This document shows positions 42,942 to 62,328 of a stretch of 64,000 nucleotides of DNA, piece by piece. Location of the stretch: positions 45,014-109,013 of IMG/VR virus record IMGVR_UViG_3300027833_001604; one strand, 5' to 3'. The notes under the pieces are model-generated. The model was not told the DNA's origin and did not search any database. It saw only the letters and a list, made by a program, of their open reading frames with translations. The first letter of the stretch is position 1. Each line of letters begins with the position of its first letter. The translations under genes and the position numbers were made by a program. The stretch comes from a virus.

Positions 42942-43838
42942 TTAGGTTCCCCATGCATTTCCGAATAATGAGATGTGTAGTCTTGGGGTAAAACGCCATC
43001 CCCTTTCCATACAGATTTCTGCGACTTCTTGGACGTTAAGATTGTATTCTTCACTGCGACCACCCATCGGCATAAGATACACAGGACACTCCAAACCTTC
43101 TTTACGATATGCTGCAACAGCTCTATCAACATCAGCAATATCATCGCTATCAGCGACAACAAATTTAAGATAGATATCGCTGTCATCCACGAGACTGTAA
43201 CAATAAGCGACATCAGGCTTGATAGCATCTTCCCAAGATTCTCCCGATACTGTGAGCTTGGGTGAACAACTCCATGTGACTTTAATTCTGTCACTGTCGT
43301 GGAGATAGTTGAATAAATCGTCATGTAAGTGTTGCGTAGTGTTTGTTTCAAATGTAACATTTTTTAAGTCCTTCATACGTGGATGTTCAAATAGTTCTAC
43401 ATAAAGTCGTTGCCACGCTAACAACGGCTCACCGCCTGTCATAATTAAATGAATGTCTTGTCCGTTATCGCAAGTCCACTTGCCTTCGGGTGTTAAACTT
43501 AACAAATGATTTACTACTTCGTCTACTTCTGCAAGTTTGTTAAAGTCTTTAAATTCAGGATAGATACTTGCATAAGTGTCGCAACCTGTGTGTATAATAG
43601 GTAAGTCTGTAAATTCAGTTACAGTATCTGTAATGCCACTATCAATTAATTCTTTAACTTCATCATTGTAACGATTACCTGCTTCATGCTTCTCAGCTCT
43701 GCTTGGTTCGTTTCTTGGTAAACCAAAATTCATACAACGAAAGTTGCAACCAAATGTGCGTAAAAATACGCTAGGAACACCTACGTATTGTCCTTCACCT
43801 TGCACACTATAAAATGCTTCTGAATATCTAAGTTTCAT
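42942..43838 (-). CDS. queE: 7-carboxy-7-deazaguanine synthase (radical SAM)
   Basis: YSEAFYSVQGEG, FLRTFGCNFRC...GCDT, TGGEP, FETN, SPKL, RLH. Confidence 0.92.
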   Translation of the reverse strand: MKLRYSEAFYSVQGEGQYVGVPSVFLRTFGCNFRCMNFGLPRNEPSRAEKHEAGNRYNDEVKELIDSGITDTVTEFTDLPIIHTGCDTYASIYPEFKDFNKLAEVDEVVNHLLSLTPEGKWTCDNGQDIHLIMTGGEPLLAWQRLYVELFEHPRMKDLKNVTFETNTTQHLHDDLFNYLHDSDRIKVTWSCSPKLTVSGESWEDAIKPDVAYCYSLVDDSDIYLKFVVADSDDIADVDRAVAAYRKEGLECPVYLMPMGGRSEEYNLNVQEVAEICMERGWRFTPRLHISLFGNAWGT

Positions 43839-46570: not shown

Positions 46571-49381
46571 TTAAAAGCTCCATGTTAAGTTAATACCTGC
46601 TGTCGTAACTGTTTCGTTTGTGCCTGCATAGTTCAAACGTGCTTCTGCATGTGCTTTTACAAACATGTTGTCTGTTACTTGGAAGTTACGGAACACACCT
46701 AAGTCTACTTCACGCTTTGTAGCACTTAAATCACTGCTACTAGTTAAGTAATCTAGCTCGCCTGTTGAACTAACTGTGCTTGCTGTATTAAACGTTGCAG
46801 TGCCATTTGTAATTGCTACTGGCACACTTGCTACAAATCCAAAGTCGCCGTTGCTAACGTTACGTTTGATACCAAGTGTTGCACTATTACTTAGCAAGTT
46901 ACTTGCTGATGTCATCATGCTGTCGCCTACGTTTACTTTAGTAACACCAAACATTGCATTACCAAATAGTGTAACATCTTCTGTTAGTGCTTTATCTAAG
47001 TTGTAGCCTGCATAGAATGTTGTAGCACCGTTAACGTCCATTAATGGATTGTCTGCAACATTACCAAGGAAACTATTACCTTCTGTTACTGCGCCAAACA
47101 TAAATTGGTCTACTGTAGTTGCAATTGCTACACTATCTTCATTAATATTTAGTGCGCCAGCTTCCATTGGAATAACTGTGCCTGCACCATATCCAAAGTA
47201 ATAGTCTGGAGCAAATCCCATATTAGCTGCTTGTGTTGGATCTGCACTACGGGTATCTGCTACGCCAATCATGTCGTTACCATCTACATAAAAGTTACGA
47301 TCATAATCATCAACTACCATTGTGCTACTAATACTACTAATATGCACACCGCCACTCAATGCAAACGCACCCGAGTCTAAACTACTACGAGCACCATCGA
47401 TACGTCCACTAGTTGGAATACCTACAACACCTTGTGGATTAGTTGCTTCATCTAAATCAAGCAAACCTTGTCCGTGTGTGTTTACATCGTAGCCCCAAAT
47501 ATCTTTGTCGGCAGTGTTAAGCAATAGTTTAACAATGTTATCGCCTTTCATGTATGGCCACATTTGATGCACAATACCTACTGCGCCTGTTACTGCCGGA
47601 GCTGCCATTGACGTTCCGCCTAGTGTTCTGTATTCACTATCAACACTTGTAGATGCTACATTGTCACCTGGTGCTAGTATATAGAAATCACTAATTCTAG
47701 CATCACTTACACACTCGCCGTCTGTGCCGTAACACATTGTTCCAGCTCGGTTACTTCTACGTGACATACTTCCTGATTTAAGATTCCATGAACCAACTAC
47801 AATTGCTTTACCACCTAGCAACAATTCTCCATCTTTGCTAGTTGCTACTGCATAATGAGCCGGGAAGGTTGGAACATCCAATCCTTGGTTACCTGCAGCA
47901 AATACAAGAACTGCTTCGTTGCCTGACATTGCATCTGTAAGTTGTGGCAACATATAATTGTCATCTACTGCTAATCCTGAATAGCCTTCAAGTGCATATG
48001 CTCCATCGTAACGTGAGTCTGTGCTATAAAATACACCATTGCCTGCACTTTGTATACTACGCTTGTATGTCAAGTCTACGTTATAGTTACCAGATACGTT
48101 TATTGCATCTGCACCATTGTTAACTGCCCATTCAATACCTCTACCTAATGCATTAAATTGATAGTATCCATTGTCCCATGCTGTTTTACCAATAAGTAGT
48201 TTGGCATCTGGAGCAACACCAGTAGTTCCTACACCATCTAAACTAGCGGCCGCAATACCTGCCACGTGTGTTCCGTGTGAATACTTATTTTTATCGTCTA
48301 CTGTTTCGTTTGTGCCTTTGTCAATCAAACGTTGATCGGTGCACATATCTATAAAACATTTGCTGGCAATAATCTTATTAGCAAACTCTGGGTGATCTAA
48401 ATCAATACCAGTATCAAGTATTGCTAACACACTGCCTTTACCTGTCCAACCTTTTGCCCAGGCTTCTGGTGCACCAATGGCTTCTAGGTTGTTTCCATAT
48501 CGATACATTCCACTTTCGCGTGTAATATAATCTATACCAACATTAGAATTTACATTATGCACTGCATCAATATATGTTTGTGTAGCACCTAACGACACAT
48601 CTTCCATTGCTAAGTATTCTTCTACAGTTAATACACCTTCTGTTTTAATACCCATACCATCGCTTACAACGATCACTGGTTCGTCAACTACGTCAACGAC
48701 AACGACCTCCTCTACAACGACAACGGGTTCTTCTTCAACGACTTCAACAATTTCAACAGGGCGTTCAAGTTCATATGTTCTAACAAACTTATGATCAGCT
48801 TCGGTTCGAACTACATCTTCTACAACTGTGCTAACTAGCTCAGTGCTGACTTCTGTAGTATTAGCACCATCACTCCAATGTTGTGTAGTGAATGTGCCTT
48901 TGTATGTTTTTGTTGTGACTGTTTTTGTGTATGTGATTGTAATATCTTCATGCACTGAAACTACATAATCTTCTGTAGTTTCTACTTCAGTAGATGATCG
49001 TGAAACAACTTCAGGTGTTTCAGTAACTACTTCGTGTTGATTGTATTTGTATGTTGTATTGATTACAGTTGCTTTTGCGTCAAGAGATTCGCCGATTAAG
49101 TCTGCGAACTTTTTAATCTCATTCTCGTAAAAGGTTACTGTTTCAACTAGTGTTGCAGCCCAACTGTATTGGCTGTATTTTTCTGCTAGTGGCTTTAATG
49201 TTTTAAGCCCATTTGAGTATGATTTCATCATACTTTTTGCAAAAGTATTCCGAGACTCAATATTTGTTATGTTTGACACCATATCATAGTAACTGAATGG
49301 TGCCGCATATGTTGGCAACGCAACAAACGACAATGATATTACTGCAATAACAGTAACTATCGCTTTTCTCACAGTATTCAT
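46571..49381 (-). CDS. secreted S8 subtilase with probable C-terminal beta-barrel
   Basis: Signal peptide; ILDTG, HGTHVAG, AAGN, GTSMAAP; ends LTWSF. Confidence 0.9.
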   Translation of the reverse strand: MNTVRKAIVTVIAVISLSFVALPTYAAPFSYYDMVSNITNIESRNTFAKSMMKSYSNGLKTLKPLAEKYSQYSWAATLVETVTFYENEIKKFADLIGESLDAKATVINTTYKYNQHEVVTETPEVVSRSSTEVETTEDYVVSVHEDITITYTKTVTTKTYKGTFTTQHWSDGANTTEVSTELVSTVVEDVVRTEADHKFVRTYELERPVEIVEVVEEEPVVVVEEVVVVDVVDEPVIVVSDGMGIKTEGVLTVEEYLAMEDVSLGATQTYIDAVHNVNSNVGIDYITRESGMYRYGNNLEAIGAPEAWAKGWTGKGSVLAILDTGIDLDHPEFANKIIASKCFIDMCTDQRLIDKGTNETVDDKNKYSHGTHVAGIAAASLDGVGTTGVAPDAKLLIGKTAWDNGYYQFNALGRGIEWAVNNGADAINVSGNYNVDLTYKRSIQSAGNGVFYSTDSRYDGAYALEGYSGLAVDDNYMLPQLTDAMSGNEAVLVFAAGNQGLDVPTFPAHYAVATSKDGELLLGGKAIVVGSWNLKSGSMSRRSNRAGTMCYGTDGECVSDARISDFYILAPGDNVASTSVDSEYRTLGGTSMAAPAVTGAVGIVHQMWPYMKGDNIVKLLLNTADKDIWGYDVNTHGQGLLDLDEATNPQGVVGIPTSGRIDGARSSLDSGAFALSGGVHISSISSTMVVDDYDRNFYVDGNDMIGVADTRSADPTQAANMGFAPDYYFGYGAGTVIPMEAGALNINEDSVAIATTVDQFMFGAVTEGNSFLGNVADNPLMDVNGATTFYAGYNLDKALTEDVTLFGNAMFGVTKVNVGDSMMTSASNLLSNSATLGIKRNVSNGDFGFVASVPVAITNGTATFNTASTVSSTGELDYLTSSSDLSATKREVDLGVFRNFQVTDNMFVKAHAEARLNYAGTNETVTTAGINLTWSF

Positions 49382-51115: not shown

Positions 51116-51631
51116 CTAAAAGTTTCCATAGTCTCGTTCGCCTTCCCAAGGAAAGACTACCCATACATCTTTTTCCATCTTATTGATTTCCATAGCTGTA
51201 TAGTCTACTTCGCCAAAGTTGCTTGCTTGATTGTCAAGCAATGATGCAAACCTAACGTTATTACCCCATACATTATTCCAAGTTTGATCACTTGGGTATG
51301 CACTTTGAGGCCAATCATTTTTGATCCATTGCATAGTCTTGCCGCTGTCGTTGATGTCATCAAACACAAGAATATTTTTACCTGCATGTGCATCTTCGGC
51401 CATCCAAGTATTACTTTCAGGTCCATGATCAGTATTGATATCCCTGAACCTTACATCCAATGCATGCATTGTAATTCCAGTAATGTTAGACATCATAACG
51501 GCTGGAACTAGTCCACCACGTGTCATTCCAACAATATAGTCTGGACGCCAATTGTCTGCAAACATAAGATTGTTAACAGTGTTAACCATATGCTCAATGT
51601 CTTTCCATGTGTAGTATACTTTATTAACCAT
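51116..51631 (-). CDS. type I phosphoribosyltransferase (Gpt-like)
   Basis: GMTRGGLVPA, ILVFDDINDSGKT, WVVFPWE. Confidence 0.9.
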   Translation of the reverse strand: MVNKVYYTWKDIEHMVNTVNNLMFADNWRPDYIVGMTRGGLVPAVMMSNITGITMHALDVRFRDINTDHGPESNTWMAEDAHAGKNILVFDDINDSGKTMQWIKNDWPQSAYPSDQTWNNVWGNNVRFASLLDNQASNFGEVDYTAMEINKMEKDVWVVFPWEGERDYGNF

Positions 51632-52392: not shown

Positions 52393-53091
52393 CTATCGTG
52401 ATGCAAAGTCTGTTTGCAGTTTAATGTTATCCATAAATTCTTCTTTAGTGCCTGCATCATCTTTAAATGCGCCTTTAAGCACTGTAGTCTGTGTTAAACT
52501 ACTTGTTGCCATAATACCTCTGTTCTCACAACAACCATGTGTTGCTTGAATGTAAACTCCTACATCACCTGAACCTGTTGCGTTCATAATCTCACGTGAG
52601 ATATCCATAGCAAGTTCTTCTTGTAGTGTTCCACGTCTAGCACACCATTGTGCAATACGTGTATATTTGCTTAGTCCAATAAGTGTATCAGCTGCAATAA
52701 TACCAATGTATGCAATACCTGTTACTGGCTGATGATGATGTGAACAAACACTTTTAAGTTCACTACGCACAACCAACATACCATCATACTTTTCGTTAGT
52801 TACGTTGTCTGGTTCATTAGGAAATGCTGTTGCCGGTGGCGCTGTTTCATAGCGGCCTGCCATTAATTCATTATAATACATTTTAGCTAAACGCTTTGCA
52901 GTATCCATACTGTTAGGATCTGTTTTTGTATCAATTACAAGTTTCTGTAATACATTCTCAAATGCTAGTGCGGCTTCATCAATTAGTTGTTCTTTGTCAC
53001 CATCTTGTAGGACTTCGGATATGTTATCACCTGCCCAATAACGAATGCCTGCTTCGTCTAATTTGTTTTTAATTTGTTCTGCTTTACCCAT
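52393..53091 (-). CDS. folE: GTP cyclohydrolase I
   Basis: SVCSHHHQP, GLSKYTRI, LQEEL, HGCCENRG. Confidence 0.95.
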   Translation of the reverse strand: MGKAEQIKNKLDEAGIRYWAGDNISEVLQDGDKEQLIDEAALAFENVLQKLVIDTKTDPNSMDTAKRLAKMYYNELMAGRYETAPPATAFPNEPDNVTNEKYDGMLVVRSELKSVCSHHHQPVTGIAYIGIIAADTLIGLSKYTRIAQWCARRGTLQEELAMDISREIMNATGSGDVGVYIQATHGCCENRGIMATSSLTQTTVLKGAFKDDAGTKEEFMDNIKLQTDFASR

Positions 53092-53105
53092 TTTCTTCTC
53101 CGAGT

Positions 53106-54107
53106 TTATGACGTGGATGTCGTTGTGCTGTGTAAGTATGCATCTCTTACCTCATTGGGCGTTGATGCTTTTTTAGTTTTCATATACCAATTATACGCGG
53201 TATATACGATACTGTCAAGTCCATGTTCTGGAACCCAACCTAATTTTTCAGTTGCTTTTGTATCTGCTACAAGAATTGCAGGATCACCTGCTCTTGCTTC
53301 AGCAAAAGCTGTTTTAACCATTAGTGGTGTTTGCAATGCTACTGCATCAACAATTTCTTTATTACTGTTACCTTGCCCACTACCTAAATTAAATATGTGT
53401 GCGCCTGTGTTATCTTTTAAAAAGTCTAGTGAACATTTAATGCCACTAGCAATGTCTTCTACGTGTATGTAATCTCTAATACATGTTCCGTCTGGTGTAG
53501 GATAGTTGTTGCCAAAGAATGTAAATGTTTCTTCAGCTATTGCACTTTCCATTACCCGTGCAATAATATGAGTTGCAGCTTTTTCTTGTCCCATCTCACC
53601 ATCCGAGTCTGCTCCAGCTACATTAAAGAAACGTAAACTGACGCTGTTCATTCCGTATGCACGAGCAAAGTCATTTAACATAACTTCTGTCATTCGCTTG
53701 CTGTATCCGTATGGATTAGTAGGTTCGTTTTTATCTGTGACTCTACATATTCCATCTTCTACTTCGCCATAACAGGCGGCTGAACTTGCAAATACAAATG
53801 TATTAACATTTTGTATCTTACAGTCATGCATTAATGCTAAAGTTCCTTGAGTATTATTTTGATAATAACCAAAAGGATCTGTCATGCTAGGACCCACTAA
53901 ACTAGTGGCTGCTATATGAACACAGGCATCAACACCAAGCAATAGGTCTTGGATGTCGTTGTAGTCACGATTATCGTGGAATACTGTGTAGTAATCGTGA
54001 CGTGGTTTGTGCCTGTCAACTCCGATAACTTCGTGTCCTGCTAACATTAATGTCTTACATGTTTGACTGCCAATGTATCCAGCCGCTCCTGTTACAACTA
54101 CCTTCAT
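53106..54107 (-). CDS. galE: UDP-glucose 4-epimerase-like
   Basis: TGAAGYIGS, ASSAACYG, PYGYSK, LRFFNVAGA, DGTCIRDYIHV; ATGA overlap with the glycosyltransferase stop. Confidence 0.88.
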   Translation of the reverse strand: MKVVVTGAAGYIGSQTCKTLMLAGHEVIGVDRHKPRHDYYTVFHDNRDYNDIQDLLLGVDACVHIAATSLVGPSMTDPFGYYQNNTQGTLALMHDCKIQNVNTFVFASSAACYGEVEDGICRVTDKNEPTNPYGYSKRMTEVMLNDFARAYGMNSVSLRFFNVAGADSDGEMGQEKAATHIIARVMESAIAEETFTFFGNNYPTPDGTCIRDYIHVEDIASGIKCSLDFLKDNTGAHIFNLGSGQGNSNKEIVDAVALQTPLMVKTAFAEARAGDPAILVADTKATEKLGWVPEHGLDSIVYTAYNWYMKTKKASTPNEVRDAYLHSTTTSTS

Positions 54108-55276
54108 GCGTATTTTGCCTCCGCAACGTGGTCTCTGTAACGGTTTCCATTGCGTAGCCATTGTTCACCATTTCCTTGCATAATATCAATCATACGATCG
54201 ATAGTGCCGTTATTCCAATCACTAATCTTACCCATGTTCTCAGAAGGTGCATCAAGTCCTGAAAGGATCTTTTCAACTGCATGTTCTTTACTCCATGGTG
54301 AATATAGACGTGTGTGATCGTTTGCAAACGTTTCAGGAAAGCTACGATATGCAGGGTAAACTACATTACAACCTAATGCATCTGCTTCACTAACGGTATT
54401 AGATACCCAGTCTTGCAATGCACAATTGAACATTACTTTGCTATCATTAACGATATCATAGTATTGATTCTTTTTTAGGTCTTCGTATATTTTCAACTTA
54501 CCTTCGTCTTGCATTTTATAAGCACGATCCAAATACTTCTGGTTGTTGCTACGTAATGGCCCGCCACTAAGCACTGCAAACTCTGTATCAGGTCTTTGTT
54601 GCAATACCATTTCAATAACATCCATGTAGAAGTCAGGTTGTTTTTCCTGATCAAATCGGGCAGCAAAAACTACACGGTTGTTACGTTGATCAAATGGTTT
54701 AATATTATCGACACGACTTTGCACTTCTTCTTTACCAAAGCTAAGTCCTGATATATTATAAAGAGGTGCCTCCCAATTTGCAATTCTCATGTGTGCTACC
54801 ATTTCTTCGTTTGTTGCTAACACTGTTGCAAACTGATTAACCATTTGCTCATACAAGCTCATCCATTTACCCATGCCCCAAACGTGGACAAAGTCATCTG
54901 GATCGACTGCTTGTGCCAAGCACCTTACATAAACTGTAGGGCGTTGTTCTTTTGGAATTTGATTCATAATGTATGGAAGTGACTCAATTCCAGGTTGAAA
55001 CATGTCTTCAAATAAGACTGCATCTTCTCCTGTGCATTCGCCATTACGCATCATTTGAACTAAATTCATTAGTTGTGACATTCCAAAATAACTACGACCA
55101 TGTGCGTCTAGCACTTGTCCAACACTAATAGCTTTAGTGTCATCAATAGTTTCTCCTGGAACAATAGTATAGTCTATTCCTCGTTTTTGGAATACCGCTT
55201 CAGCCCAGTCTTGCAACTGTAGTGTGTAGCGGCCTTCGTATGGCTCGAGGCCCATATAAAATAGTTTACGAAACAT
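54104..55276 (-). CDS. GT-B (GT4-like) glycosyltransferase
   Basis: FAARFDQEKQP, NCALQDWVSNTVSEADALG, SFPE. Confidence 0.8.
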   Translation of the reverse strand: MFRKLFYMGLEPYEGRYTLQLQDWAEAVFQKRGIDYTIVPGETIDDTKAISVGQVLDAHGRSYFGMSQLMNLVQMMRNGECTGEDAVLFEDMFQPGIESLPYIMNQIPKEQRPTVYVRCLAQAVDPDDFVHVWGMGKWMSLYEQMVNQFATVLATNEEMVAHMRIANWEAPLYNISGLSFGKEEVQSRVDNIKPFDQRNNRVVFAARFDQEKQPDFYMDVIEMVLQQRPDTEFAVLSGGPLRSNNQKYLDRAYKMQDEGKLKIYEDLKKNQYYDIVNDSKVMFNCALQDWVSNTVSEADALGCNVVYPAYRSFPETFANDHTRLYSPWSKEHAVEKILSGLDAPSENMGKISDWNNGTIDRMIDIMQGNGEQWLRNGNRYRDHVAEAKYA

Positions 55277-55613
55277 CTTTTACCTCAGGTTTGTAAACTA
55301 GTTTGCCAACATGTATCTTTAGCTTCTTAGGGCTACGTTCTCGATGCATCTGCACTTGAACATCAAATGTAAACGCATTATCTTTTTCAACGTTTTCCAC
55401 ATTGAAACTAAAGATCTTCCAAGAATGTTTTAAGTCATTCAAGTAAGAGATGAATAAAGAACGAATAATAGTTACGTCTTTTTCATTATTCATCAACCCA
55501 TCATAAGGTTGAATAATTTTTAGTAGATCGTATTTCACGTCATTAATATTATATTGTCCTGAAATGCGATACCGGTTAGCATGGCTAGTTTTGTTTGTAG
55601 TAGTGTTTGACAT
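55266..55613 (-). CDS. hypothetical protein
   Basis: Coupled ORF with AAGGA RBS. Confidence 0.7.
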   Translation of the reverse strand: MSNTTTNKTSHANRYRISGQYNINDVKYDLLKIIQPYDGLMNNEKDVTIIRSLFISYLNDLKHSWKIFSFNVENVEKDNAFTFDVQVQMHRERSPKKLKIHVGKLVYKPEVKDVS

Positions 55614-55647
55614 GTTTCATGTTCCTTCTGTCAAATTAGTTACGTTT

Positions 55648-56031
55648 TTAGTCATCTGTAAAATGCATGTTAGCACCATTCTCATTATCTTCAGCGACAC
55701 TAATTTTAAGTTCACGCTTTGGATATTTGTTAAGAATGAGTTCTGCTAATTCTTCTGCAATCATTTCACAACTGCGATGGTTTAGTTCTAGTGTTCCATC
55801 ACTATAAAGTGATTCTAACCAACGTTTGAATTGAATGAATTCAATATCTCTGTCGTTATGTGTTACACTAATTTCTACACGAAAGTGAAAGATATGCCTG
55901 TGTGCATACCCTAAGAATGAAACATCATCCCACTTACCTGTTGCTAATGCTGGGTCGTTGTTAGCAGCAGGATATAAATGCACACCCTCTTTGCTAAACG
56001 TTACCCAAATATTACGAGATGCTATTTGCAT
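55648..56031 (-). CDS. T-fold QueD paralog, DpdL-like (CDG decarboxylase candidate)
   Basis: LGYAHRHIF (LxxxHRHxF), DRDIEFI, SCEMIAE, EDNENGA. Confidence 0.7.
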   Translation of the reverse strand: MQIASRNIWVTFSKEGVHLYPAANNDPALATGKWDDVSFLGYAHRHIFHFRVEISVTHNDRDIEFIQFKRWLESLYSDGTLELNHRSCEMIAEELAELILNKYPKRELKISVAEDNENGANMHFTDD

Positions 56032-56220
56032 TTACTTAGTCTCAACGCCAGCTTTAGCACGTTCAAGTTTAAGTAATTCCCATAGCTTCCAATCGATAGC
56101 TTCAAGGAACTTCATTAACTTTTCAGTATCAAGCTCAGTTGTAGTATTAGTTGTTGATGTTACTTCTTCAGCAACCGCTGTAGTAGTATCTTCATCTAGT
56201 AGTCTTACTTTTTTAACCAT
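56032..56220 (-). CDS. hypothetical protein
   Basis: AGGAG RBS; IDWKLWE. Confidence 0.7.
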   Translation of the reverse strand: MVKKVRLLDEDTTTAVAEEVTSTTNTTTELDTEKLMKFLEAIDWKLWELLKLERAKAGVETK

Positions 56221-56229
56221 AATATTCTC

Positions 56230-56766
56230 CTATTTGATTATATGATCTTGTGTGTATTGATCCCAATCTGTAAACACAGACCGGTCCATTAAGTTATGAA
56301 GGCTATGAACCCATACACCTTCGTTGGTAGCATCAAAATCGATATCGTCGATCTTAATACATGCATTATATCCCAACTGATCAATGTAAGGAATTCTTAC
56401 GCTTATCATTGGAATAAATCTACGATACTCAGTGAACCCACATTCAAGGACCCAATCAGTATATTTGGTTTCAAAGTCTAGTGTAACCCAAAAGTCTGCT
56501 TTAAGCAAACCCATTACTAAGTTATCCCATACTTTGTTTTCTTCGTCGGTTCCATTTGGTAACTCAACATTAAATGACATGTTTGCACCCAAGTAAATAT
56601 GTGTGCATTCATGATGCGTTGCATGTTCTATGATCTCTGCCAATGAAGTCTCTGTTCCTACTACAAAGAGTGTCTTCATACCATATGCTGGTGTGCGTTC
56701 TATTTCTTTGCCTACAAACAATGTGATATCAGTTACACCACTTGCTTTATCATAGTTTCTTTTCAT
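56230..56766 (-). CDS. conserved hypothetical protein in the deazaguanine operon
   Basis: G.EIERTPAYGMKTLFV, HIYLGAN, KIDD.DF.ATN.GVW.H. Confidence 0.8.
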   Translation of the reverse strand: MKRNYDKASGVTDITLFVGKEIERTPAYGMKTLFVVGTETSLAEIIEHATHHECTHIYLGANMSFNVELPNGTDEENKVWDNLVMGLLKADFWVTLDFETKYTDWVLECGFTEYRRFIPMISVRIPYIDQLGYNACIKIDDIDFDATNEGVWVHSLHNLMDRSVFTDWDQYTQDHIIK

Positions 56767-56967
56767 TTAATGTGTTCTCTCTTCTAAAGTTGCTTCAATT
56801 TTAACAATTTCTTCTTTTAATGAAAGTTTAGCTTTTTTCATTTTATGAATCTCAATGTCATCAATATGATTAGTATACGCTTCTTTAATATCTTTGTCAA
56901 GTGTTTTATGCTTAATAATTAAAGCATCTTTGTGTCTTGTTAAACTGTTAACTGTGCCTAGTCCCAT
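56767..56967 (-). CDS. DUF465/YdcH-like coiled-coil protein
   Basis: L..KH..LD..I...MKK.KL.LKEEI. Confidence 0.7.
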   Translation of the reverse strand: MGLGTVNSLTRHKDALIIKHKTLDKDIKEAYTNHIDDIEIHKMKKAKLSLKEEIVKIEATLEERTH

Positions 56968-56981
56968 TTGCTTTCTCCTTA

Positions 56982-58481
56982 TTAGTTTAGACCCATTAGG
57001 AATTTTTCAGCATCTACTGTTTCATTCTCTGTAAAGTCATCGTCTCCTTGGTCTCCCCAACTTGCGTCAAACAAGTTATCAAATGCACTTGCACTAGTCT
57101 TAATGCTCTTCTGGTTACTAAAGTCAGCTAGCATTGGTTGAGCCTCATCTAACATTTGCATAGGAGTTTCACTTTTAAATAGTTCATTGATAAAGTTGAT
57201 TACATAGATTGTGTTGCGTGGAATCCATGTATCAAACTCATCAATCTTCTTACCAGCTTTGACTTTCTGCCAATGCTTGTGACTAGGAGTATATCTAGTC
57301 GAGGCAACATCTGCTAATGCATTTGCGTTTTGAATACTATCAATATGCATATAAACATTGTGTGCCATCATTAAGAAGTAACTAAAGCTATCCCAACTTG
57401 TCTTGCCTTCTTTACCTATTTTGTTTAACATACCTGGTTTATACCAACATATATCACCCATTGTAAGTCTGTCTGCAATTGGGCCATTAAACGGAAACTT
57501 CATGTCATAGTTTCCTGCAAATAGCTTGTCGTCGATAGCGCCTTCCATTACATAACCAAACTTGTCATTACGCATATTATTAGTTGTATACATCTGACCT
57601 TTGGCTGTAGTGATAAAAGGACTTGCAGCATCATATGTAACCATCATGTTCTCATTTACAGTTTCACGTAGATTACGTTGAATAGCTGTAAACACACAAC
57701 TCCAATCAAGTTTTGCTGTTCCAAGATAGTGAATTAAATCTCTACCTGGGTCCAACATCTTTTCATCACGCATAACAATAAGTCTGCGTAACATTAGATG
57801 CAACTGTTTCATATTGTAACCAGCCATAGCCCAACCTTCAAATGGATAGTGCTTGACTGCTTCATACCAAATGTCAGCAGTGTGTTCATCATTGCCTTGA
57901 AGAACATTCATAAACTTAGTTTTGCCTTGCCTATTACGAACAAAGTAATCATTGTTAAACATTGTATAGTCTAAACAATCTCCAAAGCTCTTTAGTCCAG
58001 TCTTTTCACTAAGTGGTGGAAGTGCTGCCAGTGTTGGAATATCTAACACCATACTATAATCTGCTGTGTGTTCTAGCCAATTAAGAATAGTGCTACGCAA
58101 CTTGTCCTCAGTTTTAAAGTTAGCCCAATCCATTTGAATTACGCCTTTGGCAATCTGGAAACCTCCACTATCGCCTAAGATAAAACTTTTGTTTCTGTCA
58201 CGTTTTTGTATCATACATTCTTGCACATCACTTTTAGCTGTGTCAAGTGTAGCATGTCCTGCCGAGTATAAACCCCACTTGTAATTATAGTAAGTGTCAA
58301 TGTCTTTAAGAAAGTCACAACCATCAATGCCGTGTTCGAAACCATTAGGCATACGTTCATTGCTTAGATAGTTAGGATCTCTCCGTTGATTACTGATCAG
58401 TTTACTGTAGAAGCTACTAATACTAGGCAAAAATACTGCATAGTCTTTGTTCTTCGTTGTGAGATCTACACTTGGAATCAT
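56982..58481 (-). CDS. dpdA: TGT-fold transglycosylase, DpdA-like (DNA 7-deazaguanine insertion)
   Basis: GDSGGFQ, LDIP, VLQG, HYLG, TYDAAS, AHN; co-located with folE, the QueD-like gene and queE. Confidence 0.8.
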   Translation of the reverse strand: MIPSVDLTTKNKDYAVFLPSISSFYSKLISNQRRDPNYLSNERMPNGFEHGIDGCDFLKDIDTYYNYKWGLYSAGHATLDTAKSDVQECMIQKRDRNKSFILGDSGGFQIAKGVIQMDWANFKTEDKLRSTILNWLEHTADYSMVLDIPTLAALPPLSEKTGLKSFGDCLDYTMFNNDYFVRNRQGKTKFMNVLQGNDEHTADIWYEAVKHYPFEGWAMAGYNMKQLHLMLRRLIVMRDEKMLDPGRDLIHYLGTAKLDWSCVFTAIQRNLRETVNENMMVTYDAASPFITTAKGQMYTTNNMRNDKFGYVMEGAIDDKLFAGNYDMKFPFNGPIADRLTMGDICWYKPGMLNKIGKEGKTSWDSFSYFLMMAHNVYMHIDSIQNANALADVASTRYTPSHKHWQKVKAGKKIDEFDTWIPRNTIYVINFINELFKSETPMQMLDEAQPMLADFSNQKSIKTSASAFDNLFDASWGDQGDDDFTENETVDAEKFLMGLN

Positions 58482-58485
58482 ATGC

Positions 58486-59235
58486 TTATACCGTTAATGC
58501 TGGAAGAATGTAATCGTATTTGCCAATGCCTGAATCTACACTAATTTGTAGAGCTCCACGGGCACTAATTTGCATTACACATGCACCTGACATTCCTAGT
58601 TTTAGGATTGCTAATACTTGTGCTAGTGGCCATGCATAACCTTCGTTTAGTTCTCCGCTAATGTTTGTAGCAAATGTTCGCTTACCTGTAAATGATCCAT
58701 CTGGTGCACCTACTGTAATAATTAAGTCCGTGCCTTCTGTTTTAACAGTAAAGTTTGGTTCGATACCACCGTAAATACCTGCAATAGCATTTAGTTCTGC
58801 TACTTTGGTTTTAGTTGGCTCAAATGCAACATCCCAATCAGCACCTTTAAACTTAACAGTTTGTAGTGTCTGCTCAATGATTTCTTTTGACATAAAACGA
58901 TATTGATCTGTGTTACCATCTGCATCTTTAAACATTAAATGGTCTGGCATTTGCACTCCATTACGTTCTCGAGAAACAACTTCAACTGAAGCTGTGTCTT
59001 CTTGATAGTTTGATAGTGCTGTAACACCTGCTAGAAAACCTAAGTTTCCTAGTCCAAACTCGCCTTTAAAATCTGCTACTGCATTATGTAATGTTGCATG
59101 CAAAATAACTGTGCGATCGGCATCCATTGCATCTAGCTCTGTTGCCTCGTCTGTGCCTGTTACTTTAACATTTGTAATAAAACCAAGACCTGCTGTATGT
59201 TTTACGATGTCTTGAACTACGTCACGTGTGCTCAT
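58486..59235 (-). CDS. probable DNA polymerase sliding clamp (gp45/PCNA-like)
   Basis: About 250 aa with a repeating beta/alpha pattern, ending YDYILPA as in clamps; fold inferred. Confidence 0.5.
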   Translation of the reverse strand: MSTRDVVQDIVKHTAGLGFITNVKVTGTDEATELDAMDADRTVILHATLHNAVADFKGEFGLGNLGFLAGVTALSNYQEDTASVEVVSRERNGVQMPDHLMFKDADGNTDQYRFMSKEIIEQTLQTVKFKGADWDVAFEPTKTKVAELNAIAGIYGGIEPNFTVKTEGTDLIITVGAPDGSFTGKRTFATNISGELNEGYAWPLAQVLAILKLGMSGACVMQISARGALQISVDSGIGKYDYILPALTV

Positions 59236-59274
59236 GTGTTTCTCCTATTGATAAAAATTTAATCTAACTATGTT

Positions 59275-59303
59275 ATTGTATAATAGTATTTAGAATTTGT
59301 CAA
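59275..59303 (-). promoter_or_regulatory. sigma70-type promoter of the clamp-dpdA operon
   Basis: TTGACA-17bp-TACAAT. Confidence 0.75.
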
Positions 59304-59384
59304 GTAAAAAGGCCATTTATGGCATTAAAATTGATGTTTTTATTATACAAGGTTTAGTTGAGTTTTGTGTTGTTTCATATTACT

Positions 59385-59413
59385 ATTATACAACATAAAT
59401 TGAAAGGTGTCAA
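59385..59413 (-). promoter_or_regulatory. sigma70-type promoter
   Basis: TTGACA-17bp-TATAAT. Confidence 0.8.
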
Positions 59414-59517: not shown

Positions 59518-59652
59518 TTATCCGAAATGCTTTGTTATAGCATTTGGTAATTTTGATTTGATAGGGTTCCATATGGCTGCTTCTGCTTTGCCTATAAACT
59601 TAGGTCTTGGCACTAGCCAACCAATTAGAACTCCTAGTAAAAAATACCCCAT
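59518..59652 (-). CDS. small 44-aa membrane protein
   Basis: MGYFLLGVLIGWLVPRP; GGAG RBS; TAATG coupling. Confidence 0.6.
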   Translation of the reverse strand: MGYFLLGVLIGWLVPRPKFIGKAEAAIWNPIKSKLPNAITKHFG

Positions 59653-60023
59653 TATAGTTCTCCGTTATCTCTCATTTGTTTTCTAATATTTGTTGCACTT
59701 ATCTCATGTATTGTAACACCTAGATCGTGTTGTGTCAAGCTATAACCTACGCCTCGGCCATAACTAATATCAACAATGTTAGGAACTGTCATAATGATAA
59801 AGTCCTCGTCATATGTAAAGCCTTCCATTGAAAGTGCCTGTCTAATGCTAAGTTCAACTTTGTTTGCACTAAATGGATTATCATCGATACCTTGCACATT
59901 ACGAACCATGATACAAACTTGTCCAGTTTTTTCTAGTGCTTTTTTAAATAATTCTGTGTGTCCTTTGTGCCACGGTTGCCATCTGCCAAGCATTTGGACT
60001 GTGGGTTTTTTACTATCAAACAT
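59652..60023 (-). CDS. cytidylyltransferase-like (HxGH) nucleotidyltransferase
   Basis: GRWQPWHKGH, ISATNIR. Confidence 0.85.
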   Translation of the reverse strand: MFDSKKPTVQMLGRWQPWHKGHTELFKKALEKTGQVCIMVRNVQGIDDNPFSANKVELSIRQALSMEGFTYDEDFIIMTVPNIVDISYGRGVGYSLTQHDLGVTIHEISATNIRKQMRDNGEL

Positions 60024-60441
60024 TATTAATCTCCATCCAACGTTGCACTACTGGCATTAGTTGTTCATGGGCATTGTCAAACCATTTCTCAATATGATAG
60101 TCTACGTTCTCAGGTGGTTCAAACATATCGTTTGTGTCTTCAAATCTACCTCGAGAAATAGTATCCATCCATATTGTAAAGTCTGGATTAAAGTTTAGTC
60201 TTGCTTCTTCTGTAGGACAAATGAAATCACACACTGCAATCTTACCTGCCATAACCACACCATCTGCTAAGTGTTTCATACGAACCGATTGTCTAATGCG
60301 ACCAGACAAACTAAAGTCCCAATCGTTATAACTTGTTCTAACTACGTCAGCATTAATCCATACACCATTAACTAGTTTAGCAAATGGTTCTGCTAGTGTT
60401 GACTTACCGCTACCCGGAAGTCCGCATATTAATATTTTCAA
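60016..60441 (-). CDS. cysC: adenylylsulfate kinase-like
   Basis: GLPGSGKST, NADVVR, DFS..GR, FEPP. Confidence 0.8.
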   Translation of the reverse strand: MKILICGLPGSGKSTLAEPFAKLVNGVWINADVVRTSYNDWDFSLSGRIRQSVRMKHLADGVVMAGKIAVCDFICPTEEARLNFNPDFTIWMDTISRGRFEDTNDMFEPPENVDYHIEKWFDNAHEQLMPVVQRWMEINNV

Positions 60442-60551
60442 TCTAAATTCTCCTCATGCCAGCTTGGGCATCCATCGTCTGTGCAATTGTTTTCTATGTG
60501 GTTAGCATTGTATATGAACAACGCTGTAATCATTACTATTATATATTCCAT
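60438..60551 (-). CDS. small 37-aa protein
   Basis: MEYIIVMITALFIY...; stop overlaps the cysC start. Confidence 0.45.
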   Translation of the reverse strand: MEYIIVMITALFIYNANHIENNCTDDGCPSWHEENLD

Positions 60552-60565
60552 TGTTATATAATAGA

Positions 60566-61726
60566 TTATGTTATAGGCTTTGTCAACCTATTTAGTAATT
60601 CTTTTCTGTTGATTTTACCTTGACCTTTACGTTCTATAGTATCTACATAGGTAATATGGTCTGGTATTTCGTATGACATTAGGTTATTTTGTAATGTTTT
60701 TTCGTCTATTGTTCCTACTATTAATGCATGTATTTCACTTTCGCCAAACACAACACAATCGTTTGCACCTGCTGTTAGTAATGCACGTTCAACTATATAA
60801 GGCATTATCTTTGCGCCGCCTTTTATGATCATATCTTTCTTGCGTCCATTAATGAATAAGAATCCATCATTGTCTATATATCCTAAATCTCCAGTAGAGA
60901 ATCCATCTACTATTAATTCATTATCATCTGCAAACTCAACATGCATTTTGTCTAGCACATATCCCACACTGTTATATTTCTGTGGGTAATGCATAATACT
61001 TACTGTGCCTAGTTCATTTAATCCATACGAATCTGTTGTTGCAACATTAAAGAAGTTTTCAGTTCTTATTTTAAATTCTTTATGCATTGGTGCACCAGTT
61101 GTTCTTATGTGTTTTATAGAATTAGAATAGGATTGTTGTGTGTCCATCATCAGATCAAGTATAGCCGGTGATGCTATAATAAATGTAGGATTAACTGTTG
61201 GCCATTCATCATACACATCTTCTAACACATAATAAGTTGCTCCTGTTTTATAGCATAAGCAAAATGTTTGAAAGCCTATTCCAACCCATAATGCTAATAC
61301 GTTAACTGTAGAGTCTTGTTCTGTTATGTTGCCGTGTGTTTGTATGTTGTTATCAAGTCCAGTTATATTATATTGCTGTTCATTATACGATATAATTTTA
61401 GGAGTTTCAGTGCTACCGCTAGAGCAAAGTCCTATTACTTCATCTGGTTTGCATTGATTGTAGCGTGGTGCAGGTAATACATCTTCCCACATGTCTACAT
61501 CATAATATTGTTGTTCTATTATCGGCATATACTGATTAATAATAACTGGGCTACACACTTGCATTGCTCCAAATATCTTAAACACATTACCAATACCACT
61601 GTAGACACCTATACGACATGTGTTGTCATACCCAGCTGCTCTTAATTCATCAGCGTATAGTTTTGCTTTTTCATCAAAGTCTGCTTTAGATGTTTCAGAT
61701 CCATCCGCCCAAACAATTAGTGCCAT
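60566..61726 (-). CDS. AMP-binding (acyl-CoA synthetase/adenylation) enzyme
   Basis: SSGSTETPK, SYGLNE, TGDLG, GRKKDMI, GK. Confidence 0.88.
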   Translation of the reverse strand: MALIVWADGSETSKADFDEKAKLYADELRAAGYDNTCRIGVYSGIGNVFKIFGAMQVCSPVIINQYMPIIEQQYYDVDMWEDVLPAPRYNQCKPDEVIGLCSSGSTETPKIISYNEQQYNITGLDNNIQTHGNITEQDSTVNVLALWVGIGFQTFCLCYKTGATYYVLEDVYDEWPTVNPTFIIASPAILDLMMDTQQSYSNSIKHIRTTGAPMHKEFKIRTENFFNVATTDSYGLNELGTVSIMHYPQKYNSVGYVLDKMHVEFADDNELIVDGFSTGDLGYIDNDGFLFINGRKKDMIIKGGAKIMPYIVERALLTAGANDCVVFGESEIHALIVGTIDEKTLQNNLMSYEIPDHITYVDTIERKGQGKINRKELLNRLTKPIT

Positions 61727-62328
61727 TATTTTATTAACCTATGTTCTCTTACCATAAAACTTGGTCTATAAAAGTCTATTTCTTTTACTTTGTGCCATGT
61801 ATTTTCGTGTGCTGTAAAACACCAAGCATGGTTAGGTTTGTATGGCACCTGTGCTTGTGCCACAGTAGGCTTGCGTGATACTAACACCCCACTATCTGTA
61901 TGGGTATTATCTTGTGCCATGTATACTTGAAAGGTAGTAATTTCTTTGTCTGGATATGCATCAACATCATTGTGCCACCCTTGATCAAATCCTGGATAAT
62001 CTAAATGCCACATACAACTATAATGATTAAACTCTACACCAGTTGCTTTAAATATATGTGCTGTAAGTTCGTCTGTCCATAACCAATCGTAGAACTCACG
62101 TAAGAATCCACTAGCACTTTCACGTGCTTCTTCATCTATCATTACAACTTGTCCTTCTGGATAAGCAGGGTCACTGCCATCGTCATTGTATATGTTCCAA
62201 TTTTTTACTGCATCAGAATATAGTATGTTCGTAAGATTCTCATATACTTCTGGAGTAAAGAAACCATTGTCGGCTTGCACATAATTCCATGGGTGCATGT
62301 ATTTGCTGTATGATGTGTTAGCTAGCAT
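61726..62328 (-). CDS. 2OG-Fe(II) oxygenase
   Basis: WHND, TFQVYM, YKPNHAW, TWHKV, R.S. Confidence 0.75.
   Translation of the reverse strand: MLANTSYSKYMHPWNYVQADNGFFTPEVYENLTNILYSDAVKNWNIYNDDGSDPAYPEGQVVMIDEEARESASGFLREFYDWLWTDELTAHIFKATGVEFNHYSCMWHLDYPGFDQGWHNDVDAYPDKEITTFQVYMAQDNTHTDSGVLVSRKPTVAQAQVPYKPNHAWCFTAHENTWHKVKEIDFYRPSFMVREHRLIK

Follow-up and report, generated by a model that had tools for sequence, protein, structure and literature searches.

Gene content of the cluster

The window, the whole stretch of 64,000 nucleotides that was analysed, comes from an IMG/VR virus contig of 109 kb whose estimated completeness is ~30%. At positions 52393-59303 it carries a cluster of ten genes that had been listed in an earlier note; all ten are present where that note had placed them, on the minus strand. 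They are given here in the direction of transcription, together with promoter-like sites and two genes further downstream.

59275..59413, minus: sigma-70-like promoter matches (consensus match only) ahead of the first gene, one at 59413-59385 (TTGACA-17-TATAAT) and one at 59303-59275 (TTGACA-17-TACAAT)
58486..59235, minus: conserved 249-aa protein (phrog_12062), upstream of DpdA
56982..58481, minus: DpdA-like guanine transglycosylase, 499 aa, with a TGT fold and a GDSGGFQ motif
56767..56967, minus: DUF465 small protein (E 1.9e-8)
56230..56766, minus: conserved 178-aa protein, no family or fold identified
56032..56220, minus: small acidic ORF of 62 aa, its conservation limited to closer relatives
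55648..56031, minus: DpdL, a QueD-paralogous T-fold protein of 127 aa with the motif LGYAHRHIF
55266..55613, minus: basic protein of 115 aa, function unknown, shared by part of the clade
54104..55276, minus: GT4-type GT-B glycosyltransferase (Glycos_transf_1, 30.4 bits; cut-off 26.4)
53106-54161 (ORF; likely start ATG 54107), minus: GalE, UDP-hexose 4-epimerase (TIGR01179, 295 bits; cut-off 262)
53218-53190, minus: promoter-like site with a perfect consensus match, just upstream of FolE
52393..53091, minus: FolE, GTP cyclohydrolase I (PF01227, E 1.8e-37)
51116..51631, minus: phosphoribosyltransferase, conserved downstream of FolE in many relatives
42942..43838, minus: QueE-like radical SAM enzyme (7-carboxy-7-deazaguanine synthase; QueE NCBIfam models)

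Counted over the whole region, promoter-like sites are no more numerous than expected from shuffled sequence. The QueE-like gene lies ~9 kb downstream of the operon, as had been proposed, and its product is matched by five QueE NCBIfam models (E 1e-8 to 1e-11), all below the model cut-offs. A QueD-like gene is encoded on the same contig outside the window. QueC was found neither on the contig nor in the records of the five largest relatives; because the contig and most of the relatives are incomplete, such absences are provisional. A role for the phosphoribosyltransferase in salvage of the released guanine is an inference; in phage BUCT-ZZ01 an XGPRT is located inside the deazaguanine cluster.

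The earlier gene assignments were verified with one exception, the description of the 249-aa protein as clamp-like, for which a profile search of PDB sequences returned no match. Its homologues are annotated as 'structural protein' in Pseudomonas phage PA5oct and as 'sliding clamp beta' in phage Phosso. The protein is encoded upstream of DpdA in the window clade, in PA5oct and in Vibrio phage 2.275.O; in Phosso and in loci L110-L114 its gene lies close to DpdL. Family and fold searches with the 178-aa protein likewise gave nothing; it is present in most of the 80 loci of the clade, with a homologue between FolE and DpdA in Acidovorax phage ACP17 and weaker matches in 5/12 loci of a distant glycosyltransferase (GT) branch. 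Conservation of the DUF465 protein is limited to closer relatives.

The motif of the window DpdL fits LxxxHRHxF, which stands in place of CxxxHGH, and the founding member of the DpdL family, CGPG_00067 of Cellulophaga phage phiST, is a homologue of it. The assignment of LxxxHRHxF to DpdL in the earlier note is correct and matches the published signature (Cui et al. 2023, PMC10516641). In the same work DpdL was proposed, without proof, to be a CDG decarboxylase giving 7-deazaguanine. When dpdL and dpdA of ACP17 or phiST were expressed alone in E. coli no dDG was formed, and the authors suggested that additional enzymes may be required (PMC10516641).

The DpdA-like protein has no Pfam or NCBIfam match, and no Pfam TGT match reaches E 0.01. 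Its AlphaFold model (pLDDT 87) finds only tRNA-guanine transglycosylases among its top 50 PDB matches (E 6e-9). The protein belongs to a divergent subfamily common to PA5oct, Phosso and Vibrio phage 2.275.O, and hhalign aligns its profile to DpdA3-like proteins, among them those of ACP17 and BUDD, with a probability of 92%. Taken together, the cluster is very probably a jumbo-phage gene set for replacing DNA guanine with a 7-deazaguanine.

The glycosyltransferase and its genomic linkage

The GT model (pLDDT 95) has a GT4-type GT-B fold, with structure matches at Z 22-27. The closest folds are BshA, MshA, SenB, LmbT and a BH4 glucosyltransferase, whose acceptors are mostly small molecules and not DNA; in structure the window GT resembles the GT4 small-molecule enzymes, BGluT included, most closely, with Z 23-27 across 300-340 residues. 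The window GT has in common with them R/K and EX7E-like donor-site residues, which are conserved across its own family as R207, K212 and [D/E]289-x7-E297, and judged by sequence the donor side looks intact. It differs from them in sequence (6-14% identity), in genomic context, which for this family is phage deazaguanine clusters (apart from the P0232 branch, with no DpdL nearby), and in the N-terminal acceptor domain, where E11, R16, Y17, T18, Q68, D91, D125, D128, W138 and E143 are invariant and family-specific. The family is acidic (median pI 5.8), which is only weak evidence against a DNA acceptor since the window DpdA is acidic too. Clustering at 90% identity gives this family at least 8000 metagenomic clusters, and clustering at 50% identity gives 833. 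Within the 80-locus clade no gene of the cluster is better conserved than the GT, at 73-96% identity compared with only 38-45% for DpdA.

The likely start codon of GalE overlaps the GT stop codon as ATGA at 54107, the coupling that the earlier note had described. Between GT and FolE the relatives encode an SDR epimerase/dehydratase (56 loci), a DegT aminotransferase (22 loci) or a UDP-Glc/GDP-Man dehydrogenase (5 loci). These varying sugar genes look like diversification of a final exposed product and not of a transient intermediate.

The GT family stands beside DpdL in 97/97 of the IMG/VR viral loci examined, which represent three deep branches. All 80 loci of the window clade have the order 249-aa protein, DpdA, DpdL, GT, SDR, FolE wherever the contig extends that far. 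The P0166 branch (~32% identical) has QueD-QueE-FolE-DpdL-(178-aa protein)-GT-DpdA in 12/12 loci, with a different type of DpdA (phrog_887), and the P0138 branch, on contigs some of which reach 435 kb, has adjacent DpdL and GT with FolE and QueE nearby in 5/5. In cultured phages of seven lineages (PA5oct group, Phosso, ACP17, BUDD/X1, BCSR5, BUCT-ZZ01) the GT, of which BCSR5 carries a family member, lies beside DpdL or within ~3 kb of it. These clusters include three different DpdA subfamilies, with DpdA adjacent to the GT-DpdL pair in most lineages, and several gene orders: DpdA-GT-DpdL-QueE in ACP17, DpdA-GT-DpdL in PA5oct, GT-DpdA-DpdL-QueE in BUDD, DpdL-GT in Phosso and DpdA-DpdL-GT in BUCT-ZZ01, where the GT is 73% identical to that of the window. 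The adjacency is found in T4-like, jumbo and 80-90 kb phages.

Vibrio phage 2.275.O is a natural control for this linkage. It encodes the same DpdA subfamily and the 249-aa neighbour, uses QueC/QueF/Gat (a preQ0/preQ1 route) and is without DpdL; no GT-family member was found in it by a search that recovered four positive controls. The linkage has limits in both directions: five DpdL phages, phiST among them, have no GT-family member, and in the P0232 branch (five short metagenome contigs) the GT adjoins a non-QueE radical SAM gene with no DpdL found within 6 kb. A GT unlinked to dpdA in relatives had been set out beforehand as grounds for refutation; the 97 viral loci and seven cultured lineages strongly favour linkage instead. 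Since the family sits beside DpdL across branches, DpdA subfamilies and gene orders, the GT is probably a member of the pathway and not a passenger.

Relation to characterized phage systems

The DNA of phiST contains 2'-deoxy-7-deazaguanosine, for which the phage encodes FolE, QueD, QueE, DpdL and DpdA3 (Cui et al. 2023, PMC10516641). Both systems have FolE, a QueD-like protein, QueE, an LxxxHRHxF DpdL and a TGT-fold DpdA, and QueC was found in neither. phiST differs in having no glycosyltransferase or sugar epimerase; the window DpdA is of another, longer subfamily (499 aa versus 259 aa) that the phiST DpdA3 sequence does not detect, and the window cluster additionally has the 178-aa and 249-aa proteins.

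The same architecture, including the 249-aa protein, DpdA, GT, DpdL and QueE, is found in the jumbo phage PA5oct (Wroclawvirus; EST35_0314-0322), where DpdA is 38% and DpdL 59% identical to those of the window. Its GT (EST35_0317, 353 aa) belongs to the family but is distant (profile E 1e-40) and has no GalE beside it, and the modified base of the phage is unidentified. All of these PA5oct genes are annotated as hypothetical in the record. PA5oct DNA is resistant to restriction enzymes with G in their recognition sites (bioRxiv 10.1101/2025.03.31.646159). ACP17 shares the DpdA-GT-DpdL trio and the 178-aa protein, in a cluster of QueD, FolE, the 178-aa homologue, DpdA3-like, GT, DpdL and QueE. 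It is, however, a T4-like phage of 156 kb with a DpdA of the DpdA3-like type, no adjacent sugar epimerase and a GT only ~24% identical to that of the window.

The alpha- and beta-glucosyltransferases of T-even phages are GT-B enzymes that transfer sugar from a UDP-sugar onto 5-hydroxymethylcytosine in phage DNA as an anti-restriction measure. As GT-B enzymes decorating a modified base they provide a working analogy for the window GT, although no specific relationship is apparent (in the ranking of viral structure matches the 'DNA alpha-GT' entries come only 23rd and 31st, on a par with generic GT-B proteins) and the acceptor here would be a purine analogue without a hydroxymethyl group.

Proposed pathway and alternative explanations

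The explanation that we favour, at a probability of roughly 0.55, is a DpdL-branch 7-deazaguanine DNA-hypermodification cluster extended by a glycosylation module, with the acceptor atom and the order of steps undetermined. From family assignments and the established pathway, FolE and QueE, together with the QueD-like enzyme from outside the window, would convert GTP to 7-carboxy-7-deazaguanine. DpdL would then process this compound, the decarboxylation to 7-deazaguanine being a published but unproven proposal (Cui et al. 2023), and the divergent DpdA-like enzyme is inferred to exchange guanine in phage DNA for the deazaguanine. The GT would take a UDP-hexose, its C4 configuration presumably set by the translationally coupled GalE, and may transfer the sugar to an acceptor derived from deazaguanine, which could be the free base prior to insertion or the base once it is in DNA.

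The earlier suggestion that GT and GalE produce a glycosylated deazaguanine thus gains support from the GT/DpdL/DpdA linkage, while the base itself remains an inference and its acceptor has not been demonstrated. That virion DNA carries such an end product has about an even chance of being right, without chemical evidence for a sugar on any deazaguanine; no paper describing a sugar-decorated deazaguanine base or a GT-extended system was found. 7-Deazaguanine has no hydroxyl to carry a sugar, so a retaining GT4 enzyme would have to use an N-, C- or carboxylate acceptor, unless the product of DpdL is something other than DG.

It is also possible, although unlikely, that the GT acts in the pathway without the sugar ending up on DNA. 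A CDG glycosyl ester or free-base glycoside could activate, solubilize or channel the base for DpdL/DpdA, or the GT could glycosylate a deazapurine or pterin that never enters DNA. The small-molecule acceptors of the nearest GT4 folds and the failure of DpdL and DpdA alone to yield dDG in E. coli (PMC10516641) agree with this, as do the invariant N-domain acids (E11, D91, D125, D128, E143), which by inference could read the 2-amino-4-oxo face of guanine or pterin. Against it, the sugar-tailoring genes vary as expected for a final exposed product, and the GT is dispensable for the core pathway, because phiST DNA holds plain dDG without one and four other DpdL phages are also GT-free.

That the GT and GalE serve some other target (hydroxymethyl-pyrimidines in DNA, a phage or host protein, the host envelope), clustering merely as gathered defence-evasion genes, is improbable. 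GT4 acceptor ranges are very wide, the P0232 branch is not adjacent to DpdL and the contig has a thymidylate-synthase-family gene; the last, however, scores 341 bits over the full thymidylate-synthase model, a sequence score that suggests an ordinary enzyme, and the neighbourhood of the cluster showed no TET/JBP or 5-hmdU kinase genes. Such a target would also leave unexplained why the GT adjoins DpdL in >100 loci differing in DpdA subfamily, gene order and virus family, and is missing from the QueC/QueF phage with the same type of DpdA.

Still harder to sustain is a pterin glycoside made by FolE, the PTPS-like T-fold protein, the SDR and the GT, as in cyanobacterial biopterin glucoside synthesis. 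The four enzyme classes do parallel the GTPCH-I, PTPS, reductase and pteridine glycosyltransferase route, and the BH4 glucosyltransferases of known structure, likewise GT4 enzymes and similar in size, align with the window GT at Z 24. Dozens of other GT4 enzymes align equally well, however; the cysteine that is catalytic in PTPS/QueD is missing from DpdL, the SDR is a GalE equivalog of the extended-SDR type and not a sepiapterin reductase, and QueE and DpdA belong to the same clusters. Only the fold speaks for queuosine-type modification of tRNA, a very remote prospect given that all phages whose DNA contains 7-deazaguanine have a DpdA-family TGT homologue (PMC10516641), that the PA5oct homologue accompanies G-specific restriction resistance (bioRxiv 10.1101/2025.03.31.646159), and that the protein aligns with the ACP17 and BUDD DpdA3-like proteins and has no significant Pfam TGT match.

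Glycosylated 7-deazaguanine in the DNA of these phages, if true, would block restriction and other DNA-targeting defences.

Organization of the cluster and supply of the deazaguanine precursor

The parent IMG/VR virus contig, of which the window is positions 45014-109013, is 109 kb in length with a G+C content of ~36%. It is estimated to be 30% complete and is therefore a fragment of a jumbo-phage genome. A megablast search of the region against cultured phages gave zero matches. All of the cluster genes are on the minus strand.

Genes and sites of the cluster and its surroundings (window coordinates unless a contig is named)
59413-59385 and 59303-59275, minus strand: promoter-like sites before the first gene (consensus match only)
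58486-59235, minus strand: 249-aa protein of unknown function (PHROG match, phrog_12062)
56982-58481, minus strand: 499-aa DpdA-like protein (fold, GDSGGFQ motif and context)
56767-56967, minus strand: DUF465 protein
56230-56766, minus strand: 178-aa protein (no family match)
56032-56220, minus strand: 62-aa protein
55648-56031, minus strand: 127-aa DpdL, phrog_17812 (LGYAHRHIF and homology)
55266-55613, minus strand: 115-aa protein
54104-55276, minus strand: glycosyltransferase (GT), a 390-aa Glycos_transf_1 protein (PF00534)
53218-53190, minus strand: promoter-like site upstream of FolE (consensus match only)
53106-54161, minus strand: GalE ORF, probable start ATG 54107 (TIGR01179 above cut-off)
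52393-53091, minus strand: FolE (PF01227)
51116-51631: phosphoribosyltransferase, near FolE and QueE
46571-49381: protein of 936 aa containing an S8 (subtilase) domain, lying between the part with FolE and the part with QueE
46010-46567: thymidine kinase, near FolE and QueE
44773-45732: PRPP synthetase, near FolE and QueE
42942-43838, minus strand: QueE-like radical SAM enzyme
40115-41206: SAM synthetase, near FolE and QueE
Contig G000:C1:24579-25028, outside the window and ~76 kb from the cluster: PTPS/QueD-family gene

The 127-aa protein carries LGYAHRHIF, which fits the motif LxxxHRHxF. The earlier note had given this motif as the mark of DpdL, and the source bears this out: DpdL is defined there by the change of the QueD motif CxxxHGH to LxxxHRHxF (Cui et al., 2023; PMC10516641). 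The window protein is homologous to the DpdL of Cellulophaga phage phiST, a founding member, with E-values of 2e-24 and 4.5e-22 for the DpdL family HMM against the phiST protein. In tblastn it is 55% identical to the ACP17 protein and 41% identical to phiST CGPG_00067 over 54% of the length; its identity to the ACP17, PA5oct and Phosso proteins is 55-62%. Searched as a regular expression, the pattern L...HRH.F is present in 50 of the 62 family members, and it also occurs in distant loci. The decarboxylation of 7-carboxy-7-deazaguanine (CDG) to 7-deazaguanine by DpdL is a proposal that remains unproven even for the founding members, and 2'-deoxy-7-deazaguanosine was not produced in Escherichia coli carrying dpdL and dpdA of ACP17 and phiST (PMC10516641). 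In Vibrio phage Bakedbeans the DpdL domain forms the C-terminal part of a 383-aa ORF (gp176, L106:6182-7363), which suggests a fusion of DpdL with an unknown N-terminal domain of ~260 residues.

FolE, QueE and DpdA accompany DpdL within the window, and a QueD-like gene of the PTPS family is found elsewhere on the contig. The FolE that had been read in the cluster scores 129 bits against PF01227 (cut-off 27); NCBIfam equivalog models match with an E-value of 5e-38 yet remain under their curated cut-offs, which indicates a divergent phage FolE. A QueE-like radical SAM enzyme is likewise present downstream, where the earlier note had placed QueE. QueC was not found on this contig or in four larger relatives, all of these records being incomplete. 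The presence of the enzymes leading from GTP to CDG, together with DpdL and a TGT-fold enzyme, is well founded. The sole PTPS/QueD-family gene of the contig has CHLLHGY in place of CxxxHGH, so that the cysteine is kept and the last zinc-binding histidine is a tyrosine.

Downstream of the cluster lie genes for a peroxiredoxin, the phosphoribosyltransferase, the S8 protease, thymidine kinase, PRPP synthetase and a MazG-like protein, followed by the QueE-like gene. The phage's own SAM synthetase, PRPP synthetase, thymidine kinase and phosphoribosyltransferase seem to supply the radical SAM step and to salvage the guanine released in base exchange; by inference, guanine set free by DpdA may be recycled through the phosphoribosyltransferase and PRPP synthetase. 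A homologous XGPRT lies within the cluster of Synechococcus phage BUCT-ZZ01.

The 249-aa and 178-aa proteins have no assigned function. A PDB sequence search with the 249-aa protein, previously described as clamp-like, gave no significant match. For the 178-aa protein the Pfam, PHROG, NCBIfam and PDB profile searches were all empty, a scan of 29 homologues against Pfam gave nothing exceeding noise and the ESM Atlas scores (≤0.84) were uninformative. Directly upstream of the cluster promoter region is a four-gene group (59652-62391, minus strand). Its products, of 123, 141, 386 and 221 aa, are respectively a cytidylyltransferase-like protein, an APS kinase-like P-loop kinase, an adenylate-forming enzyme of the AMP-binding type and a protein weakly matching 2OG-Fe(II) oxygenases. 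These could form a further small-molecule or nucleotide-modifying module.

The transglycosylase, the glycosyltransferase and its sugar-nucleotide partner

The 499-aa protein, proposed earlier to be a TGT/DpdA enzyme, matched no Pfam (including PF01702), NCBIfam or PHROG family at E ≤0.01, and the PDB phmmer and PDB profile searches were also empty; only the fold search settled its identity. An AlphaFold model built from 35 homologues (pLDDT of 87) has the TIM-barrel TGT fold, and its top 50 PDB matches are all tRNA-guanine transglycosylases (E-value of 6e-9, probability of 1.00). The motif GDSGGFQ occupies residues 103-109, in which Asp104, Ser105, Gly107 and Gln109 are invariant among the 35 homologues. 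Its assignment to the family accordingly depends on fold, motif and context, and the protein belongs to a divergent subfamily. Homologues occur within groups of 7-deazaguanine genes in PA5oct-like Pseudomonas jumbo phages, in Sinorhizobium phage Phosso and in Vibrio phage 2.275.O. The motif DSGG[LF]Q is also found in the DpdA3-like proteins of ACP17, BUDD, BCSR5 and BUCT-ZZ01, which adjoin DpdL, and hhalign relates the profile of the 499-aa protein to these proteins with a probability of 92% (E-value of 5e-7). The phiST DpdA3 as a query detects none of the other DpdA types, and a kinship between it and the ACP17 type was not shown. We call the 499-aa protein a putative divergent DpdA-like enzyme, with a DNA substrate that is inferred and not shown.

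The assignment of a GT-B glycosyltransferase to the cluster holds. The protein scores 30.4 bits against PF00534 (gathering cut-off 26.4), and its model (pLDDT of 95) has the two Rossmann domains of a GT-B fold of the GT4 type. It aligns with Z-scores of 22-27 to BshA, MshA, PimA, SenB, LmbT, sucrose-phosphate synthase and tetrahydrobiopterin glucosyltransferases, which are roughly tied. Arg207, Lys212 and [D/E]289-x7-E297, which we take to be the donor-site Arg/Lys pair and the EX7E-like motif of GT4 enzymes, are kept in at least 92% of 133 family members, in which the family-specific N-domain residues Glu11, Arg16, Tyr17, Thr18, Gln68, Asp91, Asp125, Asp128, Trp138 and Glu143 are also conserved. 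Judged from these conserved residues the GT looks catalytically competent. Phage DNA alpha-glucosyltransferases come no nearer to it than generic GT-B proteins do, their entries appearing only at ranks 23 and 31 in BFVD. A ThyA-family gene is present on the contig (341 bits), for which synthase and hydroxymethylase were not distinguished. The isoelectric point was considered as a clue to DNA binding and rejected as non-discriminating, the whole cluster being acidic.

In the window the donor-side partner of the GT is GalE (295.3 bits against TIGR01179, cut-off 262.3; PF01370 E-value of 1e-50). Its most likely start, the ATG at 54107, overlaps the TGA stop codon of the GT as ATGA, in agreement with the coupling seen previously. 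The presence in the cluster of a GT4 enzyme that looks competent, translationally coupled to a UDP-hexose epimerase, is well founded. In relatives the interval between GT and FolE holds an NAD-dependent epimerase/dehydratase in 56 loci and, in subsets, also a UDP-glucose/GDP-mannose dehydrogenase (five loci) and a DegT/DnrJ/EryC1 aminotransferase (22 loci). A constant GT with varying sugar-nucleotide tailoring enzymes suggests, by inference, that the transferred sugar differs among lineages, as would be expected if a decoration exposed on DNA were the object of an arms race.

Co-occurrence of the glycosyltransferase with DpdL

In the clade of the window (80 IMG/VR loci) the order 249-aa protein, DpdA, (178-aa protein), DpdL, GT, SDR and FolE is kept wherever the contig extends. 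The GT is by far the best conserved of these proteins (73-96% identity), the identity of DpdA falling to 38-45%. The linkage extends to deep branches of the GT family. In the branch represented by P0166, the GT of which is only ~32% identical to that of the window, all 12 of the loci have QueD-QueE-FolE-DpdL-(178-aa homologue)-GT; these phages are 50-100 kb in size and two are complete with terminal repeats. In the P0138 branch, with contigs of up to 435 kb, DpdL and GT are adjacent in five of five loci, and FolE, QueE and the 249-aa protein lie close by. Profile searches located GT-family members in cultured phages as follows.

Position of the GT-family member in cultured phages
PA5oct: EST35_0317, between DpdA and DpdL
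Phosso: directly after DpdL, annotated 'glycosyltransferase'
ACP17: between DpdA and DpdL
BUDD and X1: directly before DpdA and DpdL
BCSR5: adjoining DpdA, ~3 kb from DpdL
Synechococcus phage BUCT-ZZ01: after DpdL (388 aa, 73% identical to the window GT)

A DpdA-less pathway was considered for the P0166-branch genomes, where DpdA was missed by the Pfam TGT model, by profiles A2 and A3 and by phiST DpdA3, and where the hhalign comparison of profile A4 with A3 was negative. It was rejected: the ORF following the GT matches phrog_887, 'queuine tRNA-ribosyltransferase', in nine of nine loci and represents a third DpdA type. BUCT-ZZ01 encodes a second, 447-aa glycosyltransferase of an unrelated family (L088:6007-7350) between FolE and DpdA, which hints at two sugar transfers. 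In the 80-90 kb phages of the distant GT branch, a gene lying shortly past DpdL-GT-DpdA, at a distance of a few genes (L103:12428-15067), specifies a family A DNA polymerase that is joined to a uracil-DNA glycosylase domain; this architecture has recently been reported for phages with T-modified genomes (PMC13697223).

Vibrio phage 2.275.O provides a natural control. It has the same DpdA subfamily and the 249-aa neighbour, but it carries QueC, QueF and a Gat domain and no DpdL. No GT-family member was found in this phage by a search that recovered four positive controls, and the GT thus tracks DpdL and not DpdA. The co-occurrence of GT and dpdA that the earlier note put forward as a check is observed: GT, DpdA and DpdL cluster together across lineages, the GT following DpdL rather than DpdA. 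The reverse does not apply: phiST, RHph_I1_18, Bakedbeans, Ahp1 and D479 have DpdL without a GT anywhere in the genome. In 2.275.O the place of the GT after DpdA is taken by a protein of 370 aa (L004:11729-12841) that weakly matches an amidoligase and may carry out a different tailoring step on preQ1.

The exception is the P0232 branch, in which five short metagenome contigs (L115-L119) have the GT beside a CxxxCxxC radical SAM gene distinct from QueE, and DpdL is absent within 6 kb. In one of these (L116) a homologue of the 178-aa protein immediately follows the GT. Context searches for other deep branches returned nothing for P0268, P0228, P0202 and P0187 (viral contigs), P0228 (metagenomes) or P0202 and P0149 (genomes). 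Most contigs are fragments, several deep GT branches lie outside the linkage survey and the counts include many related loci; the independent evidence amounts to about ten distinct lineages and three DpdA subfamilies. The co-occurrence of GT and DpdL over unrelated phages is well founded.

Proposed product and its significance

Everything concerning the product is inference. DpdL would give 7-deazaguanine or a related base, DpdA would place it in DNA and the GT would glycosylate the base before or after insertion. 7-Deazaguanine has no hydroxyl group, and this is the main chemical difficulty of a glycosylated deazaguanine. The sugar would accordingly need to be attached through an N-glycosidic bond, through a C-glycosidic bond at the electron-rich C7 or as an ester on CDG, unless the product of DpdL differs from that proposed. 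The DNA of PA5oct resists restriction at G-containing sites and its base is unidentified (bioRxiv 10.1101/2025.03.31.646159). Both this resistance and the failed dpdL and dpdA reconstitution in E. coli are compatible with a missing step.

We give roughly even odds (about 0.5) to the reading that a large group of phages, abundant in the environment and including this marine jumbo clade with PA5oct, ACP17, BUDD/X1, BCSR5, Phosso and BUCT-ZZ01, carries an undescribed glycosylated 7-deazaguanine in its DNA. The base would be made by a dedicated GT4-family enzyme that co-evolved with DpdL, with a lineage-dependent sugar (hexose, amino sugar or uronic acid) in an unusual N-, C- or acyl-glycosidic linkage, the base having no hydroxyl.

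Four other explanations were weighed. The GT might act within the pathway but on a small molecule that is only an intermediate and is not retained in DNA, a possibility that we regard as unlikely. An unrelated target, the position of the GT reflecting only the clustering of defence-evasion genes, is improbable and hard to reconcile with more than 100 loci across differing virus types. A module making a pterin glycoside is very improbable: the pteridine glycosyltransferases BGluT/PGT align with the GT (Z-scores of 24.4 for 9v0l and 24.1 for 5zes), tied with many other GT4 enzymes and below the top Z-score of 26.6, but DpdL has no catalytic cysteine, the SDR is GalE, and QueE and DpdA occur in the same clusters. 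Finally, that the TGT-fold enzyme acts on tRNA is also very improbable. The support for DNA as its inferred substrate is only indirect, namely its genomic association with FolE, QueE and DpdL and the resistance of PA5oct DNA to restriction at G-containing sites.

With regard to the preferred reading of a glycosylated deazaguanine in DNA, the DNA glycosylations known to us (glucosyl-hmC and base J) are all on pyrimidines, and none of the 7-deazaguanine DNA bases that we know of (preQ0, preQ1, ADG, G+, CDG, DG, methyl-preQ1 and formyl-preQ1) bears a sugar. Full-text literature searches turned up neither a glycosylated 7-deazaguanine nor a DpdL-linked GT; a 2024 MMBR review was outside their coverage, and a mention there is not excluded. 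The main text of the paper defining DpdL does not mention a glycosyltransferase (PMC10516641; supplements not covered). The cluster belongs to a known kind of system and leads to a prediction that can be tested, namely a DNA base of a new class.

The conserved trio of DpdA, GT and DpdL predicts a new class of hypermodified purine; if real, it would have no known precedent in any DNA as a glycosylated purine analogue. The GT could account for the failed DpdL and DpdA reconstitution, and the trio offers a candidate for the G modification, so far unidentified, in therapeutic phages of the PA5oct type. Several cultured phages have the trio, so the prediction is directly testable. The GT family comprises at least 8000 clusters at 90% identity (833 at 50%) in metagenomes, and the modification, if real, would therefore be common in nature, with relevance to restriction, CRISPR and glycosylase-based defences, to nanopore and other sequencing artefacts and to enzyme tools.
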